DNA from: Enterobacteria phage GiZh
Strand: one strand, 5' to 3'
DNA length: 64,000 nt
Sequence record: NC_054903.1
The translations under genes and the position numbers were made by a program. Under the pieces are notes generated by a model. The model was not told the origin of the DNA. It searched no databases and worked only from the letters and a program-made list of their open reading frames with translations. Of this stretch, positions 33,545 to 55,678 are shown piece after piece (position 1 is the first letter of the stretch; each line of letters starts with the position of its first letter).

Positions 33545-33735
33545 TTTGAATGCTCTATAATTAATTTTAAAGCTTCTTCACTGACAAAAATTTCGTCAGG
33601 ACCTTCTATAACTTCAACCATACGAAGTTGATTAGTTAAGAGCTCACATACGAGCTCCTTGTTATAATCTTTAAATAGCTGGTCAATACGTTTCTTATGG
33701 GCTTTCTTGAGCTGACGCTTATTTAAACGAGCCAT
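33541..33735 (-). CDS. hypothetical protein (64 aa)
   Basis: ORF. Confidence 0.5.
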   Translation of the reverse strand: MARLNKRQLKKAHKKRIDQLFKDYNKELVCELLTNQLRMVEVIEGPDEIFVSEEALKLIIEHSK

Positions 33736-34253
33736 TAATAACCTCGGTCTTGACGAGCGAAGTTTTCAGCATTTTTCAGATAATAAAGTTTAAATATTTC
33801 TTCAGCTGACATTCCAAGAGCAATGAATTTATTCATGAAAAAGTGAAATTGATCAATCAGTTCAAATTTAATTTCAAGCTGATCTTCAGGAGATAAATCT
33901 TGAATTTTCTTGGATTGCATTTCAGAATAACGTTTCTTCCAAGGTTTCCATACAGCAGAAGCTTCTTTTTCGCCATTACTCATACCACCGAGAGAAGTAT
34001 ATAGCTCGCGAGTTTCGTCTGCGATATAATCGTCTTGGTTTCGCAACCAAGCAAGAACTTCTCCCGCAGTTTCAAGTGAATCAGGATGACGATTTGTTTC
34101 TGGTTTATCATTAGCCAAACGAATCTGTAAATGCCGCTGCATGTCAAGCATAACCTGCAGTGGGTCAATATTGTGCATAATATTCTCAGCATATGCACGA
34201 TTTGCTTTATCAACACCTTCGATCAAATGAGCACATTCATTAAAGTAAGCCAT
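33735..34253 (-). CDS. 56: dCTPase/dUTPase gp56 (MazG-like)
   Basis: 171 aa from ATG 34253 with RBS (ORF-track N-terminal extension not used); same length as T4 gp56. Confidence 0.8.
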   Translation of the reverse strand: MAYFNECAHLIEGVDKANRAYAENIMHNIDPLQVMLDMQRHLQIRLANDKPETNRHPDSLETAGEVLAWLRNQDDYIADETRELYTSLGGMSNGEKEASAVWKPWKKRYSEMQSKKIQDLSPEDQLEIKFELIDQFHFFMNKFIALGMSAEEIFKLYYLKNAENFARQDRGY

Positions 34254-34324
34254 TATTTTTCCTTTCAATTCATGGGTTAGTAGATTAATTATACAATAAA
34301 TATATAAAGCAATAAGGAGGACAT

Positions 34325-34525
34325 ATGGTACAAAAATTAATGGCACTTGTTAATGCCATCAAAGGTAATAAGAAACGTATAGCTTTTACTATTTCTGCTA
34401 TGGTAGGAATTTTACTCTGGAACTTTATTTTATCACCAATTGCAATTGCACATGGTGTTAATATTCCAGTAGTTACTCTTGATACATTTGTAGATTTAGC
34501 ATTTGCTTTAGTTGGGTTAATTTAA
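34325..34525 (+). CDS. small two-helix membrane protein (66 aa), the only + strand ORF in the early region
   Basis: perfect SD AAGGAGG 5 nt before ATG; hydrophobic; stop overlaps gene 61 stop on opposite strand. Confidence 0.5.
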   Translation: MVQKLMALVNAIKGNKKRIAFTISAMVGILLWNFILSPIAIAHGVNIPVVTLDTFVDLAFALVGLI

Positions 34526-35550
34526 ATCTTAGCATATTTAGATAACCGCATTTTAGCCATCAACCCCTGGGCAATATTATTTTTCATATATTCCATAATT
34601 TGTTCAGGGGTTGCACCTTCCTTTCTAATCATATCATTAACATCTTTTGATTTCCAGGGAGATTTATCCCAAAACATAACCCTTTCTCCTGCATCAACTA
34701 ATTTAGTCATTCGCTTAATAGTGTCAGGATGACGAGGTTCATTATCTAAGACCCACACACGCCTATCTTTAAATGGAACAACTTCTAGGTCTAATTGACC
34801 ACCCGTAATAGCTATACCATTTTCAATAAAAAGTGAATCTATAGGTCCTTCTAAAACATATACATCACCATCTTTAACTCGTTCGACTCCATATATTTTT
34901 GTTGCCTCAGGATAAGCTTTGATGGTGATATATTTTTGAGGAGCATCTTTCTTTAATGCACGTCCTTGAAAAGACTCAGCTTTTCCATTAGCATTATAAA
35001 TTGGAATAACAAGACGAGGCTCAGAAATTTCCTTTTTGTATGTTCCCGGTGCTATGCTATTAACTAATTTAGGCCATTCAGTTGTAAACCAAAGATATTT
35101 CCATTTATCCTTTGGAATACAACGAGCTTTTACATATTTTATAATTGCATGGTCTTCCGCCAGTTTATCTAATCGAACACATGACGGAAGAGATTTAATT
35201 ATTTTCTTCTCAGGTTGTTTAGGAAGTTCTTTAGGTTTTTCTACTGGACGACTTTTACCTTTTTCTTTTCTTATTTCAAAGATATACTCACGATATAAAT
35301 CAGGTTCAAACTCCTTTAAATATATTCCGATTGGTGCATGATAGTTACAGTTATAACAATGAATATTTCCTTCATTATTATCACCATAATACCATCCACG
35401 AGCTTTATTCTGGTCGGTTTTTGAATCTCCACAAACAGGACATCTAAACCGTAATTTAAAAGTTGAACTATTATTTACTTGTGTGAATTTAGGTAAATGA
35501 GCTAATGCACGGTATGCAAACTCATTATCAATCCAAGGTATTGATGACAT
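34522..35550 (-). CDS. 61: DNA primase gp61
   Basis: 342 aa, same as T4 gp61; N-terminal zinc ribbon CPVCGDSK...CYNC and TOPRIM region. Confidence 0.9.
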   Translation of the reverse strand: MSSIPWIDNEFAYRALAHLPKFTQVNNSSTFKLRFRCPVCGDSKTDQNKARGWYYGDNNEGNIHCYNCNYHAPIGIYLKEFEPDLYREYIFEIRKEKGKSRPVEKPKELPKQPEKKIIKSLPSCVRLDKLAEDHAIIKYVKARCIPKDKWKYLWFTTEWPKLVNSIAPGTYKKEISEPRLVIPIYNANGKAESFQGRALKKDAPQKYITIKAYPEATKIYGVERVKDGDVYVLEGPIDSLFIENGIAITGGQLDLEVVPFKDRRVWVLDNEPRHPDTIKRMTKLVDAGERVMFWDKSPWKSKDVNDMIRKEGATPEQIMEYMKNNIAQGLMAKMRLSKYAKI

Positions 35551-35713
35551 TTTTACTCTTCTTTTTCTTTAGATTCCTCTTTTTTTTAGGAATCTGTTCA
35601 GGACCTTTATTTACTACAGCGCCTGATGTTGTTCCAGTAGAGATATTTTCAGGATTACCACCTGAATCTCCAGCTACCATATCTTCTTTAATAAATTCTT
35701 TATATGTTTTCAT
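35528..35713 (-). CDS. hypothetical basic protein (61 aa)
   Basis: ORF overlapping gene 61 start by 23 nt. Confidence 0.4.
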   Translation of the reverse strand: MKTYKEFIKEDMVAGDSGGNPENISTGTTSGAVVNKGPEQIPKKKRNLKKKKSKNVINTLD

Positions 35714-35760
35714 ATTAACCTCTATTCATAAAAGCATTAAAAATTTGGTCATCAATAGAT
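35711..35760. repeat. ~50-bp direct repeat copy 1 (3' end of 118-aa gene and downstream)
   Basis: about 48/51 identical to 36069..36118. Confidence 0.8.
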
Positions 35761-36071
35761 GGAATAGCAACCTTTTCGGCATCATTTAGCAAATCATTAA
35801 TTTCATCAGATAGCATAACACATGTGCCTTTATTTCCTGTAATTGTTACTGCGCAATTACGAACGTTTTCTTTATCAAATTTTAGGTTAATATTTTCGTA
35901 GTGAAAATCCTTTAATGCCGAATATATCTTTAAAATGAAATTGTCTTTTACTACAATAAACCCAACCTCACTATTAAAACGCGGTTCATGGAAACTGTAA
36001 TAAACCTTTTCATCTATAAAATCGTATGAAATTTTTTCCATTTTTAAATATGAAAATTCAGAACTATACAT
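35715..36071 (-). CDS. hypothetical protein (118 aa), one copy of a repeated domain
   Basis: homologous to C-terminal half of the neighbouring 210-aa protein; ends DDQIFNAFMNRG. Confidence 0.5.
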   Translation of the reverse strand: MYSSEFSYLKMEKISYDFIDEKVYYSFHEPRFNSEVGFIVVKDNFILKIYSALKDFHYENINLKFDKENVRNCAVTITGNKGTCVMLSDEINDLLNDAEKVAIPSIDDQIFNAFMNRG

Positions 36072-38997: not shown

Positions 38998-39342
38998 TTA
39001 AAAGAATTTAAATTTTTTCTTTGACCTTTTATTAAATGCATCTTGTAGTTGCATTGTAATACATTTTTCTACATGAGGAGCTAACTCAGCTTTTCTTTCT
39101 TGGTCAAGAACAGCAAAGTCCATTACGACTTTTCCATCAACCCAATCTAATTTTGTCACATACACAATGTGTGTAGAACCGTCTTCTAGTTTAATGACAA
39201 TCTCCTGGATAACATTTTCCATGGCAGATTTAATTATCTTAAGAGATTCATTAAAAAGACGTTCTTTTCTTTCTTCTTCCCCCTCCGAAGAGGGGGATTC
39301 ATCGATAATTTCTAGATCTAAATCTAAATCATCTTTATTCAT
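38998..39342 (-). CDS. 40: gp40-like protein
   Basis: position between 41 and uvsX; ~114 aa from internal ATG. Confidence 0.5.
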   Translation of the reverse strand: MNKDDLDLDLEIIDESPSSEGEEERKERLFNESLKIIKSAMENVIQEIVIKLEDGSTHIVYVTKLDWVDGKVVMDFAVLDQERKAELAPHVEKCITMQLQDAFNKRSKKKFKFF

Positions 39343-40516
39343 TAAATTCTTCCATATCACTTAACTGCTCGAGGTCAGTTTCTAAATCAGCAGCTGATTT
39401 ACTTTTACTTTCTGGAGATTTAAATTTTTCAACCTTTGAGTTAATCAATTCATCAACTTCAGCTTCAACAATTTCATTACTATCAATAGCACCTAACTGA
39501 TAAGCACGTTTAATAGCATCTCGGAATGGTTGATGCTTAAATAAAGGACCCCAGAATGTGGTGCAGTTGGTATCTTTTGCACGCCAAGATTTTTCTTCGC
39601 GAATCATCTCACCGGTTTCTTCATCAAGAAATTCACGAGCATACCAACCATTTTTAGGTTTTACCACGAATCCTAATTCTAGAGCCATATCTAACAATCC
39701 AGAATAAGGATCGATACCGCCGTCAAATTTAACATCAATAAAGAATTTACTTTTTTCTTTAACGGTACGAGATTTTTCTACATTTAGAACAAATTGATAC
39801 CCCTGAAGATCAGAACCATCTTTAATCTGGCGTTTACCGATAATGAATACAGTATCAGCCGAATACATTACGCCTGTACCACCTGTCATCACGGTTTTAC
39901 TAAACATTTCAATTGTTTCAATTGTATGGTTAACCGCAACACATGGAATATTTTTAATGCTAAAATAAGGAGTAACAATACGGAATAATGACTTCAGTGA
40001 TTTAGCACGAGTCATATCTGCCACAGATTTTTCATTCAAGGCATCTTCCGTTTCTTTCTTAGAAGCCATATTACCGATTGAGTCGATGAATACAATAACC
40101 TTTTCACCACGCTCAATAGCTTCAAGCTGATTCACCATATCAATTTTCAGCTGTTCAACTGACTGGATTGGCGTATGAATTACTCGTTCCGGGTCAACTC
40201 CCATGGATCGCAAATAAGCTGGAGTAATACCAAATTCGCTATCATAGAATAGACAAACCGCGTCAGGATATTTGTTCAAATACGCCGCAACCATAGTCAA
40301 AGACATATTTGATTTAAAGTGTTTAGAAGGACCTGCAAAAATAGTTAAACCAGACTGCATGCCGCCATCAATCGCACCAGAAATAGCAATATTAAGCATT
40401 GGAATTTTTGTACGAATTACATCCTTTTCATTAAAGAATTTAGATGTAGTCAGTTCAGCAGTCATTTTAGAAGTGGAAGCTTTAATCAAACGGGATTTTA
40501 AATCTGCAATAGACAT
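39335..40516 (-). CDS. uvsX: UvsX recombinase (RecA-like)
   Basis: 393 aa; RecA-fold motifs; T4 UvsX ~391 aa. Confidence 0.9.
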   Translation of the reverse strand: MSIADLKSRLIKASTSKMTAELTTSKFFNEKDVIRTKIPMLNIAISGAIDGGMQSGLTIFAGPSKHFKSNMSLTMVAAYLNKYPDAVCLFYDSEFGITPAYLRSMGVDPERVIHTPIQSVEQLKIDMVNQLEAIERGEKVIVFIDSIGNMASKKETEDALNEKSVADMTRAKSLKSLFRIVTPYFSIKNIPCVAVNHTIETIEMFSKTVMTGGTGVMYSADTVFIIGKRQIKDGSDLQGYQFVLNVEKSRTVKEKSKFFIDVKFDGGIDPYSGLLDMALELGFVVKPKNGWYAREFLDEETGEMIREEKSWRAKDTNCTTFWGPLFKHQPFRDAIKRAYQLGAIDSNEIVEAEVDELINSKVEKFKSPESKSKSAADLETDLEQLSDMEEFNE

Positions 40517-40593
40517 TCATTTTTTCCATAGGCATCATTATATTTTCCTCACTGGTTAAAGATAGAGTAATTATAACACAATAAATTTAGGCA

Positions 40594-41442
40594 TTAATCA
40601 ACTGCTATTGGATGAATAGCATTAAACTTATGAAATGCTTCTGATTTTTCTTTACGCGAAACACACATGCGAAGAACCTTTAGTGGTTCATCTTCTTCAC
40701 CCAACGATTTTCGTTTTTCAATATTAGAAGTTTTCCAACGAGCTTGCTCTGGAAACTCTCTATTGATTTGCTCAAGCGCTCTATTATGTTTAGAATTACT
40801 GCGAATTGAACTGCACCCGCCAGGAGCTTGTGCTTTTCCAGATACAACCAGATATTTGAACAAGGCCAAATGCGGATAACCTTGATTAATTAAATTGAGA
40901 AATGCATACATATCTTCGCACAAATCAATTTTTCCATACCCAATTTGTTCTGTCGTAAGTTTTCCAAGGTCATACCATGTATTCGTGAATCCATATGAAT
41001 TTTCACGATAATTACCCCAAGATGAAGTAATTTTAAAAATAGGTAGACGAGCATGGCCATGATAATACCCACAATCCATGGCATCCTCAACATATTGAAT
41101 CAATTCATAGAACTGTTCACGAGTCAATTGATTGACTTTATCCACACAACGACGATCATCTCTTTTTCGCATTGAACTCATACGAATAGTAGTATCATCG
41201 TCAATCATCCAGATTCGTTGACCTGCATACATATCAGTAATTGCTTTACGAGTGCCGGCAATTCCGTTTACATCATCAGGAATAGTTACAATTTTAGCTC
41301 TAGACCCGTAAGCGTCATAATAAGCTTTTTCTTCGTGTTCACGCACTACAATATGGGGTTCATAATCAGTCGGAAACATATCAAGGGCAGAAACTGCCCC
41401 TACACGTTGATAGCTCGGAATTACGAATTGAATCATTTCCAC
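40594..41442 (-). CDS. putative DNA-hydroxymethylcytosine glycosyltransferase, GT-A type (not T4 beta-gt)
   Basis: 282 aa at the locus where T4 has beta-gt (351 aa); DDD (DxD-like) motif in IWMIDDDTTI; no resemblance to T4 beta-gt as I recall it. Confidence 0.4.
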   Translation of the reverse strand: MEMIQFVIPSYQRVGAVSALDMFPTDYEPHIVVREHEEKAYYDAYGSRAKIVTIPDDVNGIAGTRKAITDMYAGQRIWMIDDDTTIRMSSMRKRDDRRCVDKVNQLTREQFYELIQYVEDAMDCGYYHGHARLPIFKITSSWGNYRENSYGFTNTWYDLGKLTTEQIGYGKIDLCEDMYAFLNLINQGYPHLALFKYLVVSGKAQAPGGCSSIRSNSKHNRALEQINREFPEQARWKTSNIEKRKSLGEEDEPLKVLRMCVSRKEKSEAFHKFNAIHPIAVD

Positions 41443-42173
41443 TCACCGTTATAATCTTTTTTCACAATATGAGTTTCGCCAGTATTCCACCAATGATCAA
41501 CCAAGTAAAAATGACGAGAATATACATGAAGACTTCCAACATTCCATATAATAGAACCTGCTTTATACTGACGAGTTGAATCGCCTGCATTCAAATCAGA
41601 TACTAATTTATCTAATACGTATTTTTGCCATGCATAATCATTACGGAATCCGAAGACCACGTCATTTGAGCGCATGCTTACTACTGCATTGACTTTCTTA
41701 TCACGAATCAGGTACTGTACTGTATTAGTACACATGAAATCTGACATACCATCTTTATTGTAGTCAAATTGCATGGATGGACGAGTATAAATCATGATAC
41801 CACGTCGAGAATCAGGATTTTGACCAAGTTCAGCTAAACACATATCATACTGGGCATAGTTATCTTCTGACCAAATAGCCCAACCATAATTCGAGTTAAT
41901 TTCGCCTTTAGAAGATGCTACCTGCTGCCAAATCTTTGGTGTTTCACCTGGAATATCTTTAACAAACAAGCTCTTAGATTTATACCATTCAAGTTCACGC
42001 TGAATGTATTCATCATTAAGAGCGCCAAAAATAAACGGTTCATCTGCTACAAATGATGCGCCAATAATTTCAATAGTTTTAACACCAGTTTTATCAACTA
42101 CGAAATCTTTTTCCTTTAATGCAAGCCCCAAATGAAGACGGATTTCTTCAACTGTCATAGAGTCACTAATCAT
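41433..42173 (-). CDS. 42: dCMP hydroxymethylase gp42
   Basis: 246 aa, same as T4 gp42; thymidylate-synthase-like fold motifs. Confidence 0.85.
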   Translation of the reverse strand: MISDSMTVEEIRLHLGLALKEKDFVVDKTGVKTIEIIGASFVADEPFIFGALNDEYIQRELEWYKSKSLFVKDIPGETPKIWQQVASSKGEINSNYGWAIWSEDNYAQYDMCLAELGQNPDSRRGIMIYTRPSMQFDYNKDGMSDFMCTNTVQYLIRDKKVNAVVSMRSNDVVFGFRNDYAWQKYVLDKLVSDLNAGDSTRQYKAGSIIWNVGSLHVYSRHFYLVDHWWNTGETHIVKKDYNGEWK

Positions 42174-42180
42174 TTAAACC

Positions 42181-42330
42181 TCAATTGATGCATTCATATT
42201 TAAATTGTAACAGTAATAAACCCCACCCTATGATAAGAGTTGGAATCATAGCAGGAACTGTTACGCTATAGTATATACTTATTATAACCATCAAGATTAA
42301 AAGCAACACTGTTATAATTTTGCTTTTCAT
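42181..42330 (-). CDS. small membrane peptide (49 aa)
   Basis: hydrophobic; ATG overlaps imm stop; below cut-off. Confidence 0.3.
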   Translation of the reverse strand: MKSKIITVLLLILMVIISIYYSVTVPAMIPTLIIGWGLLLLQFKYECIN

Positions 42331-42578
42331 TCTTTCTCTCTGATGATAATTACCTGATTTGGCTGTGCAGACTTTTTAGTTTCACTAGCAATTGACCAAA
42401 TAAATGTAATAAACCAACCAATAATTGACCAGTTAAACAGTAAAGACGTGAAAAAGATTCCTACTGTCGATTTTGACCCACGCATCAAGGCGATAAACCA
42501 TGGAAGCATGTATATAATAATAGCCAACACACCTGAAACTAAAACCATAAAAATTGAACCTGCTACTAAAGTTTCCAT
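42327..42578 (-). CDS. imm: immunity (superinfection exclusion) protein Imm
   Basis: 83 aa; sequence recognised; two TM helices. Confidence 0.85.
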   Translation of the reverse strand: METLVAGSIFMVLVSGVLAIIIYMLPWFIALMRGSKSTVGIFFTSLLFNWSIIGWFITFIWSIASETKKSAQPNQVIIIREKE

Positions 42579-42593
42579 GTTTTCCTCACTTAG

Positions 42594-42968
42594 TCAATTT
42601 TTTTTTACACATGAATTATAAGAATTCACTACATACTCCATCGGAGCATTTTTACCAGTACGCCATTGGTAATTATTAGCCCAATTAGCCCAAATTTCGG
42701 CGCAGTAGTTTTCAATTTTTTCTTCGCGTGTAATTACATCAGAATTACGATATGCTTGAGCAGATTCATCTGGACGAATAGCTTCGTCAAAATTCGCCTG
42801 CATTTGTTCTACTGTTTGCTTTGGAGCTTCTTTATAACACTTGACATTAGGATTATAAAATTTGCTTGAACAGTTTACAATTTTTCCTACACCAGACTGA
42901 TTTACTACCGGTCCTTGAGCTACACAACCAGTAAGACCTAATGCAATAACCAAAATAGCGATTTTCAT
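42594..42968 (-). CDS. lipoprotein (124 aa)
   Basis: signal peptide with lipobox LTGC. Confidence 0.55.
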   Translation of the reverse strand: MKIAILVIALGLTGCVAQGPVVNQSGVGKIVNCSSKFYNPNVKCYKEAPKQTVEQMQANFDEAIRPDESAQAYRNSDVITREEKIENYCAEIWANWANNYQWRTGKNAPMEYVVNSYNSCVKKN

Positions 42969-42978
42969 AATAATTTCC

Positions 42979-43215
42979 TCAAATGCAAGTAGTAATTACT
43001 CCAGTAGTGCTTATGCAGGTATTACCCATTTGCACACCTAAAGATCCATTTGTATTCACATGAAGATTATCATCAATTTTAACTGATATTTTACCATTAG
43101 TGTGAATAACGGTGCTAGATTCAATCACAGGTTGAGTATCATTTTCAACACTAACAAATGGAACTGCTGCTAATGCAACTAAACAAACTGCTAAGCATCC
43201 CATAACAATTTTCAT
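42979..43215 (-). CDS. secreted/envelope protein (78 aa)
   Basis: signal peptide; start at ATG with GGAGAA RBS. Confidence 0.5.
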   Translation of the reverse strand: MKIVMGCLAVCLVALAAVPFVSVENDTQPVIESSTVIHTNGKISVKIDDNLHVNTNGSLGVQMGNTCISTTGVITTCI

Positions 43216-43244
43216 TTTATTCTCCAAATCTGTATCAGTAGTTG

Positions 43245-52682: not shown

Positions 52683-53698
52683 TGTGTTGCCTCTACATAT
52701 AGCTGATTTGCATATTGAATAAGTGCTTCGCGATCAGAATCAGTGATGTCTGGAATTGCATTAATGTATTCTTCCATCAATGTCTGAAGAGATTGAACTT
52801 CAACTTCTTCACTGTCATCTGACTCAACAGAGTTATCAATCTTTGACACAACTCGTAATGAATGCACAACTTTTTCTAGTTCAGATTCGAACTTCGTTAG
52901 ATTTTTGTCTACTTCAGTTACTATAACACGTACTGATAGATTTGTAAAATCTTTATAGTCAATTTTTCCTTTAAATGGATAATGAATTCTACGATGCCAT
53001 GTAGTATTGTTTGGAATAAATTCCATTCGTTCTGTTTCTGTATCAAACATCCAGAACCCGCGAGGGTCATTCTCGTCACCTGCAGTTAGTGTCCATGGTG
53101 TCCCAATATATCTGACGTTAGCAGCCTCAGAAATAGTATGGAAGTGACCAGACCACACTTCCTTATAAGTCTTAAGGAAATCAGGTTCAAGACCGTGAGA
53201 TTTCATTCCTTTATAAAAATAAAATCCGTTCAGTTCCCAGTGACCAACACAAAAAGAAGCAGAAGAAGTTTTTATGTGCTCGAGAATTTCACCAGTATTT
53301 TCTTCACACATCCAAGGAATTAAATCAATTAAACATCCGTCAAAATCTACTGTAGTAGGCTTATCATATACTTTAACATTAGGATATTTAGCCAAAAGCT
53401 CAGTAGAGGCATTTGGATGCATTACATTTTTGTAGTGGAGATCGTGATTTCCTACAATAGTATGTAATGTGATTCCAGCATCATCAAGCATTTGAACTAT
53501 TTCACGAGCAAACTCCATAGTTTTATGCGTGATTGCTTTTCGCACATCAAAAATATCACCGTATTGAATCCAGGTAGTAATTCCATTTTTCTTAGAATAT
53601 TCTATCGCTTGTTTAATTCCATCAATTTGAATACCGCGAATCCACTCATCATCAGCTTTAACGCCTAAATGCCAATCACCCAAGTTTAGTATTTTCAT
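52679..53698 (-). CDS. 47: recombination endonuclease subunit gp47 (Mre11/SbcD-like)
   Basis: 339 aa; sequence recognised (MKILNLGDWHLG..). Confidence 0.9.
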   Translation of the reverse strand: MKILNLGDWHLGVKADDEWIRGIQIDGIKQAIEYSKKNGITTWIQYGDIFDVRKAITHKTMEFAREIVQMLDDAGITLHTIVGNHDLHYKNVMHPNASTELLAKYPNVKVYDKPTTVDFDGCLIDLIPWMCEENTGEILEHIKTSSASFCVGHWELNGFYFYKGMKSHGLEPDFLKTYKEVWSGHFHTISEAANVRYIGTPWTLTAGDENDPRGFWMFDTETERMEFIPNNTTWHRRIHYPFKGKIDYKDFTNLSVRVIVTEVDKNLTKFESELEKVVHSLRVVSKIDNSVESDDSEEVEVQSLQTLMEEYINAIPDITDSDREALIQYANQLYVEATQ

Positions 53699-54299
53699 GG
53701 TGTCTTTTCCATCCTAATTTAGCTGCTTTTGAAACCAGTTCTTTAATTTTTCCTTTTGTCCATTCAGGACCAGGAGGTTCATGACATAACATTTGCTTAA
53801 CTCCGTTATTATACCATTTTTTACCTTTATTATGTGATGAAGCTTTAAATTTATTTGACCTTCCTTTTACATAACCTTCTGGAATATAAGGTAAAAATGC
53901 AGATTTTCCTGTTAATGGATCATGTGAATGTATATTTCCTTTACAATTATGAGAACCATATAATGGATGATTTTTTCCTTTAATATCTCTTCCAAATGAA
54001 CCTTTTGGAGCAGCATATGACATATTAAAGAATAATGGATTTTTAACTGCATCATGCAATCGTTGATAATATAACTCGCATTTAATAGCTTCTTCACGCG
54101 TATCAAATTCAGCTAAAATGCATGAATCAAATAAGTGAGGATTATCTGAAAGCTCTTTATTATAAATTTTCTTATACTTTTTAGATAAAACTGAACCATG
54201 ATATCCAGCTAAATGCCTATCTAAAGACGTAGATCCAATATAAAAAGGAGGAAGTTTATCTCCACTATATATTGTTAAATAAGTTATATATTTTTTCAT
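53676..54299 (-). mobile_element. Seg-like GIY-YIG homing endonuclease gene (207 aa)
   Basis: YITYLTIYSG...FYIGSTS...R...E...N pattern; C-terminal KKWYNNG motif; overlaps gene 47 start by 23 nt. Confidence 0.6.
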
Positions 54300-54461: not shown

Positions 54462-54479
54462 AGGGCCGAAGCCCTTTAT
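54462..54479 (-). terminator. hairpin (AAGGGCUUCGGCCCUU) at the 3' end of a-gt
   Basis: UUCG-loop hairpin overlapping the a-gt stop codon. Confidence 0.4.
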
Positions 54480-55678
54480 TTTGTAATAATGTCAAACTGT
54501 TCTTTAAAGCAGAAGCTTGAATCTTGGTGCTGATACAAAAATTCATATGCTTTTTCTCGCTCACGGTCATAAAGAGCTCGGTCAGATGACAGTTCTTTAA
54601 TACGTTCAAATGTTGATTCCATATCATTTTCATCAAACCAAATGATACCGCTATCATGCGAGGTCAAAGGAGTATTATCAACACGGAATTTTAAATTTTC
54701 GCCAGTAGATTTCCAAAATACCGGAATTGTTCCACATGCACCAAGCTCGAGATGAGTATATTCTAAAGAGCGCTGTAGATATTTTTTATCCAACTTACTC
54801 AACTGATAACCAAAACCGGATTTACTCATACGTTCAAGCATTTCGCTATTTACATAACGGTCAAGAATTTGCGTTGGCAAATTAGGAGCAATTTTAATTT
54901 GGTCTACTTGATGAAGACGATAATACTCGTATGGAATTCCTTTTTCTTTAATAGGAATGAACGCTGGAGAACGTTCCAGACCTTCCATAATAGTACTTAG
55001 TCCTGCAGGTTTAAGATGTTTTTCATGAAAATCAAACATCTGATAAAAACCTTTCCATGTAGTCGTACGACCAATCCAACGGTTGATATTCATGTTAATT
55101 TCAGAAACATCTTTCCAGTAGGTTGATCGAACCTTCGCAATATCCATAGGAGGCTGAAAGTTATATACTGTCGGTGCTTCTTCAATATCATCAAACAGAG
55201 AAACAGTTTCTGGATACCACTCTTTCATCAGAACTTTATTAAAATCACCATTATCAGAATGGCTAAAAATAACATCAGCTCGACGAACAGTTTCTTCTAA
55301 TCCCAAATTTCGACGCAAAGAAAGAGAAGAATGGTCATGCTGATAAACTACAACACGAACAGAAGGTTTAATGTTATCAATAATTTTTTTATAGTTATTA
55401 ATAGTGTCTTCTTCAACCGAAGTAGCAGGAACTGAATTGATAATTAGAATATCACAATCATTTACCAGCTTAAGTGTTTTATCGTATTCTTTTGCCAATA
55501 AAACCGGAATTGAAAATGATTTATAATCATGCGCGCAATTACGAGTAAATGATTTATCTTTAGCATAAACCAAAGTTACTTCATGACCATTTTTAATAAA
55601 CCAATCACGTTGCTCGAGTGAGAATTTTGTTACACCACAACCTTCAAGACCTCGAGCCATAAAAATACATACTTTCAT
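54476..55678 (-). CDS. a-gt: DNA alpha-glucosyltransferase
   Basis: 400 aa; near-identical to T4 alpha-gt as recalled. Confidence 0.9.
   Translation of the reverse strand: MKVCIFMARGLEGCGVTKFSLEQRDWFIKNGHEVTLVYAKDKSFTRNCAHDYKSFSIPVLLAKEYDKTLKLVNDCDILIINSVPATSVEEDTINNYKKIIDNIKPSVRVVVYQHDHSSLSLRRNLGLEETVRRADVIFSHSDNGDFNKVLMKEWYPETVSLFDDIEEAPTVYNFQPPMDIAKVRSTYWKDVSEINMNINRWIGRTTTWKGFYQMFDFHEKHLKPAGLSTIMEGLERSPAFIPIKEKGIPYEYYRLHQVDQIKIAPNLPTQILDRYVNSEMLERMSKSGFGYQLSKLDKKYLQRSLEYTHLELGACGTIPVFWKSTGENLKFRVDNTPLTSHDSGIIWFDENDMESTFERIKELSSDRALYDREREKAYEFLYQHQDSSFCFKEQFDIITK

Follow-up and report, generated by a model that had tools for sequence, protein, structure and literature searches.

The T4 beta-glucosyltransferase (beta-gt) and the beta-alpha-glucosyltransferase (ba-gt) of phages T2 and T6 both act on hmC-containing phage DNA, forming a beta linkage from UDP-glucose. 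However, the acceptor is the hydroxymethyl group of hmC for T4 beta-gt and the 6-OH of an existing alpha-glucose for ba-gt, and the two enzymes share no sequence similarity, belong to different Pfam families, and differ in fold (GT-B for T4 beta-gt, GT-A for ba-gt), the T4 structure being PDB 1JG7 (cited in PMC13216743). In T2 and T6, ba-gt attaches a glucose by a beta-1,6 linkage to the glucose added by alpha-gt, generating gentiobiosyl-hmC. This form accounts for 72% of T6 hmC and for 5% of T2 hmC, and in either phage about 25% of the hmC carries no sugar (PMC6024577; bioRxiv 10.64898/2026.02.25.707755). T6 without ba-gt contains alpha-glucosyl-hmC only (PMC11078745), and its DNA can then be degraded by two enzymes, the glycosylase Brig1 and the deglucosylase BapA (PMC11078745; bioRxiv 10.64898/2026.02.25.707755).

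We analyzed a 64-kb stretch of the phage GiZh genome (64,000 nucleotides of NC_054903.1), hereafter the window. An uninterrupted open reading frame (ORF) runs along the minus strand at 40594..41442 (282 aa when counted from GTG), in the order uvsX (39335..40516, minus strand; Pfam T4_UVSX_C and RecA), the ORF, and gene 42 (41433..42173), with uvsX as the downstream neighbor that defines the locus. A preliminary description of this DNA had reported a 282-aa ORF between uvsX and gene 42; the ORF and its position stand, while its start, and with it the length, is most likely different. The GTG at 41442 was dropped in favor of the ATG at 41436..41434, which is the most likely start because it overlaps the gene 42 stop codon in an ATGA and because the same start is annotated in every relative inspected (FelixPlatter, T2, and the Durham phages CP, EL, EH2, and BGP). 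The ba-gt (ggt) coding region thus spans 40594..41436 on the minus strand (280 aa plus stop). As read from the sequence, the ATGA occupies 41433..41436 on the same strand, combining the ba-gt start codon with the gene 42 stop TGA (41435..41433), and the annotations of FelixPlatter, T2, CP, EL, and EH2 show the same overlap of four bases. This arrangement suggests co-transcription and translational coupling of ba-gt and gene 42. Scans of 40300..42400 returned no excess of either promoter-like sites (13, versus 10.0 +/- 3.4 in shuffled sequence) or terminator-like sites (2, versus 1.1), and are uninformative on a separate promoter; the overlap is the sole expression signal relied on here.

The ORF almost certainly encodes a T2/T6-type ba-gt (also named ggt or TAGT), which makes gentiobiosyl-hmC together with alpha-gt, and no feature of the sequence speaks against this assignment. 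In the tblastn search, the best match was the "hmC beta-alpha-glucosyltransferase ba-gt" of FelixPlatter (Bas40), identical at 280 of 280 residues, and the comparison with T2 and T6 named as a check in the preliminary description gave 277/280 identical residues (99%) for T2 ggt, in two independent T2 records, and 275/280 (98%, five differences) for T6 (MH550421). The ORF also matches PHROG 842 (phrog_842), "beta-glucosyl-HMC-alpha-glucosyltransferase," with E = 3.3e-89. Together with family membership and synteny, these identities bear out the leading guess of that description, a T2/T6-type beta-alpha-gt. The resemblance to the T2 and T6 enzymes (UniProt Q06717 and Q06718, cited in PMC6024577) extends to the 280-aa length, the position between uvsX and gene 42, the ATGA coupling, and the partner genes a-gt, 42, and 56. 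Over uvsX-ggt-42-imm (39335..42600), the DNA is colinear with T6 at 97.8%. All of this has been published before: the gene, its GT-A fold, the phenotype of the T6 knockout, and the fact that the gene is syntenic with T4 beta-gt. The finding, while correct, is an ordinary one.

Homologues were encoded in 687 of the 50,697 phage records searched by tblastn, so the ORF is not a chance reading frame. In 470 of the 687 records the identity was at least 95%, and almost all of these belong to Tequatrovirus phages from the genera Escherichia, Shigella, and Yersinia. T4-like phages of Klebsiella, Enterobacter, Citrobacter, and Salmonella form another group, with identities of about 65%. The gene is the usual occupant of the uvsX/gene 42 slot in T4-like coliphages, where T4 is the exception and GiZh is not. 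Two IMG/VR contigs encode the identical protein, from a scan whose five loci are too few for allele statistics. For the deep alignment, we used the exhaustive representative search, which gave 336 matches at E values up to 0.001; a word-indexed protein search gave 11 relatives.

The sole Pfam match of the protein was TAGT (TET-associated glycosyltransferase, PF20691), with residues 3-207 aligned to profile positions 2-205 of 205, that is, over the full length of the profile. The family-wide invariant residues and the GT-A fold are shared with TAGT, but the score is modest (38.1 bits against a gathering cut-off of 27.5), and the T-even branch is a divergent member of the family. TAGT was defined mainly on phage and bacterial genes linked to TET/JBP, whereas ba-gt is partnered with the dCMP hydroxymethylase pathway and with no TET/JBP dioxygenase. 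In the alignment of 68 family members (19-78% identity), R11, D80, D175, G186, and G207 were invariant and all are kept by the GiZh protein, as are I6, P7, R63, D79, D81, G206, R212, and P229, each at least 90% conserved; in a 10-sequence alignment, D79, D80, and D81 were all invariant. Homologues with identities as low as 20-30% retain the length and the motifs. The DxD-like IWMIDDDTTI motif singled out in the preliminary description is present, with codons D79-D80-D81 at 41194..41202 (minus strand) forming, from family conservation, a putative DxD-type metal and nucleotide-sugar binding motif. Codon R11, in an N-terminal IPSYxR loop (41404..41406, minus strand), is family-invariant and intact in GiZh, and is His in both T2 records.

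A search of PDB sequences found no solved structure of any ba-gt family member, and the fold was therefore tested on a predicted model. With a pLDDT of 94.6, this model adopts a GT-A fold, in which one alpha/beta/alpha domain of the Rossmann type contains a DxD motif. The GT-A type proposed in the preliminary description, for which it had named structure prediction as a check, thus agrees with the model, and a published AlphaFold 3 (AF3) model of the T6 protein had already been assigned to GT-A, where it was placed as sister to GT2 (PMC13216743). Compared with cellular GT2-type GT-A transferases (TarP, 6H1J; SpsA, 1H7L; GalNAc-T1, 8V9Q), sequence identity is merely 8-15%, and the acceptors differ, being a lipid-, protein-, or polymer-linked sugar for the cellular enzymes and a sugar on duplex DNA for ba-gt. 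Analogy with known GT-A enzymes suggests catalytic roles for the DDD motif and R11, and the fold, read with general knowledge of GT-A transferases, points to a UDP-glucose donor and a metal-dependent inverting mechanism centered on DDD.

The window also holds the genes on which such an enzyme would depend, all on the minus strand: (i) gene 42 (41433..42173; Pfam Thymidylat_synt), encoding the dCMP hydroxymethylase that makes hm-dCMP and syntenic with gene 42 of T4, T6, and T2; (ii) gene 56 (33735..34253), encoding the dCTPase/dUTPase that removes dCTP from the precursor pool, 98.3% identical to T6 gp56 over all 172 aa by tblastn; and (iii) a-gt (54476..55678), encoding the DNA alpha-glucosyltransferase that adds the first glucose. 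The last, described beforehand as a canonical alpha-gt, was recovered as such by Pfam (AGT, PF11440, E = 1.8e-237) and by identity to T2 a-gt at 398 of 400 residues. The window thus contains both the enzyme producing the acceptor and the hmC pathway. In the proposed scheme, gp56 and gp42 would substitute hm-dCTP for dCTP among the DNA precursors; once the DNA has replicated, alpha-gt would glucosylate about three-quarters of the hmC in alpha linkage; and ba-gt, a soluble GT-A enzyme with a DxD motif, would use UDP-glucose to add a second glucose beta-1,6 onto the alpha-glucose, giving gentiobiosyl-hmC. Because the window has no beta-gt, hmC out of reach of alpha-gt would remain unglucosylated in GiZh. 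The reaction itself is taken from the T2/T6 literature; the basis for assigning it here is identity, family, fold, motif residues, synteny, and pathway genes, and we infer that the GiZh allele is active.

The extent of gentiobiosylation can be estimated, though not with certainty, from measured relatives. Nucleosides of field Tequatrovirus phages fall into groups: in CP, EH2, and others there is about one-third 5-hmdC and about two-thirds alpha-5-gentiobiosyl-mdC, with a trace of glucosyl-mdC, and in EL, BGP, and Geo the hmdC : glucosyl-mdC : gentiobiosyl-mdC ratio is approximately 1:2:2 (PMC13390438). The four Durham genomes compared (ba-gt at L013:5119-5961 in EL, L015:199-1041 in BGP, L011:22406-23248 in CP, and L016:2360-3202 in EH2) carry alleles 1-6 aa from that of GiZh, which is one residue from EH2 (V50I) and two from CP. 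Because these nearest measured alleles show the T6-like profile, GiZh virion DNA is predicted to be T6-like/CP-like, with about two-thirds gentiobiosyl-hmC, about one-third hmC, little alpha-glucosyl-hmC, and no beta-glucosyl-hmC, a prediction that is a correlation over four measured field phages plus T2 and in which expression level or alpha-gt could matter equally. A six-residue haplotype (M89I, R95K, C97R, V101I, A202S, and Q203H) is common to EL and BGP and absent from GiZh, CP, and EH2. The ba-gt haplotypes thus track the Durham modification groups, with two phages per group, and this could reflect phylogenetic hitch-hiking.

The T6-like prediction has to be weighed against a weak ba-gt of the T2 kind, which would leave mostly mono-alpha-glucosyl-hmC and a few percent gentiobiosyl-hmC. 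The GiZh protein is in fact slightly closer to T2 (three differences) than to the T6 record (five), its alpha-gt is 99% identical to that of T2, T2 reaches only about 5% gentiobiosyl-hmC (PMC6024577), and field Tequatrovirus phages with ba-gt show at least two modification ratios (PMC13390438). However, the three T2 differences are H11, I50, and S251 in place of R11, V50, and P251 (R11H, V50I, and P251S), and R11H, the one that falls at a conserved site, is absent from GiZh, which has the Arg found in all 68 members. Because the alleles nearest to GiZh among those measured, EH2 and CP, also go with about two-thirds gentiobiosyl-hmC, we regard a T2-like weak enzyme as distinctly improbable and retain the T6-like profile as the prediction for GiZh.

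The alleles of the classical laboratory phages drew separate attention. The T2 ba-gt genes carrying R11H lie at L004:7286-8128 (MH751506) and L005:4283-5125 (AP018813), with the GiZh equivalent of the site at 41404..41406, and in both records the change is CGT to CAT at this family-invariant site. In the T6 record MH550421 (L001:7138-7980), codon 10 of ba-gt is an amber TAG, and the annotated CDS begins only at Met20. In the T6 record AP018814 (L017:4135-4974), codon 10 is CAG and one GAT/GAC Asp codon of the DDD motif is lost in frame, leaving 279 aa. These T6 lesions are odd given the 72% gentiobiosyl-hmC reported for T6, and they could be stock mutations or GAT-repeat errors. R11 is retained in ten other close alleles, both T6 records among them, and Q10, R11, and DDD are kept in GiZh and in nine of nine other alleles (Bas40, the four Durham phages, and IMG/VR contigs). 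A comparison of alleles of this kind raises the idea that GiZh ba-gt might be the intact, fully active wild type and that of the classical laboratory phages damaged, which we put forward tentatively and consider doubtful. If the lesions are real and do not stem from sequencing or from the stocks, R11H may be a hypomorphic allele behind the T2/T6 difference and so explain the historic values of 5% (T2) versus 72% (T6), and selection during laboratory passage may turn against the second glucosylation or cease to maintain it.

A further reading is that the enzyme transfers another sugar or glycosylates bare hmC directly. It would then stand in for T4 beta-gt, or be an arabinosyltransferase of the RB69 kind, and would not act at the second step. 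The ORF does occupy the exact slot of T4 beta-gt, which is the likeness between the two genes: ba-gt in GiZh replaces T4 segA plus b-gt, a T4 segment without counterpart in GiZh, and the alignment with T4 is restricted to the flanks (uvsX, 87%; gene 42, 95%, or 94.9% DNA identity). However, a T4-type beta-gt was rejected for want of any sequence similarity. Just as had been remarked in advance, the ORF protein bears no resemblance to T4 beta-gt, with no significant alignment by BLASTP (best E = 2.2), and a tblastn search of the entire 64-kb window with T4 beta-gt found nothing better than E = 1.4; the absence of beta-gt is judged within this window, where the syntenic slot is filled by ba-gt. 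T4 b-gt matched its own Pfam family (T4-Gluco-transf, PF09198, E = 9.4e-98), while the ORF matched TAGT only. At 98-99% identity to the T2/T6 enzymes it is very unlikely that the donor or the acceptor has changed, deletion of ba-gt in T6 removes the second glucose only and retains alpha-glucosyl-hmC (PMC11078745), and beta-glucosyl-hmdC was not seen in the Durham phages with near-identical alleles (PMC13390438). An arabinosyl system of the RB69 type was likewise rejected, given the T2-type alpha-gt in the window and the listing of RB69 with no a-gt, b-gt, or ba-gt homologue (PMC6024577). We therefore consider another sugar or acceptor highly improbable and keep to the T2/T6-type ba-gt.

There is a negligible likelihood that the ORF is an inactive relic or an accidental reading frame, and this reading was rejected. 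Laboratory T6 records with an amber or a deleted Asp codon do indicate that loss of the gene is evidently tolerable. However, the GiZh genome is AT-rich and the frame stays open for 843 nt, every family-invariant residue is retained, the identical protein occurs in an independent isolate and two IMG/VR contigs, and homologues at 20-30% identity are unchanged in length and motifs.

The ba-gt gene decides the sugar pattern of the phage DNA. Gentiobiosyl-hmC is resistant to the BapA deglucosylase and, in vitro, to the Brig1 glycosylase, and the roughly 25-35% bare hmC that goes with the lack of beta-gt exposes the phage to hmC-specific defenses such as Brig3 (PMC11078745; bioRxiv 10.64898/2026.02.25.707755). 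Knowing that GiZh is T6-like rather than T4-like is useful for annotation and for the choice of therapeutic phages, and adds no new biology.

Several neighboring features were also observed. Between gene 47 and a-gt, an ORF at 53676..54299 (minus strand, 207 aa) shares 23 nt with the beginning of gene 47 and matches PHROG 10820 and 314 (homing endonuclease), with a weak Pfam GIY-YIG hit below the cut-off (E = 3e-4). The same interval in T2 and T6 is only a short intergenic gap, so the GiZh ORF looks like a mobile seg-like insertion beside the glucosyltransferase gene. A tblastn search with the T4 Dam methyltransferase (E up to 1e-5) gave no match anywhere in the window; dam seems to be missing from the 56/61 interval of GiZh (34254..36000), as it is from the T6 record, while T4 and T2 carry it there. 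On either side of imm and imm.1 lie two short, membrane-like ORFs, at 42181..42330 (minus strand, 49 aa; PHROG 3610) and 42979..43227 (minus strand, 82 aa; PHROG 4189); FelixPlatter and the Durham phages have both, and neither is annotated in T4.
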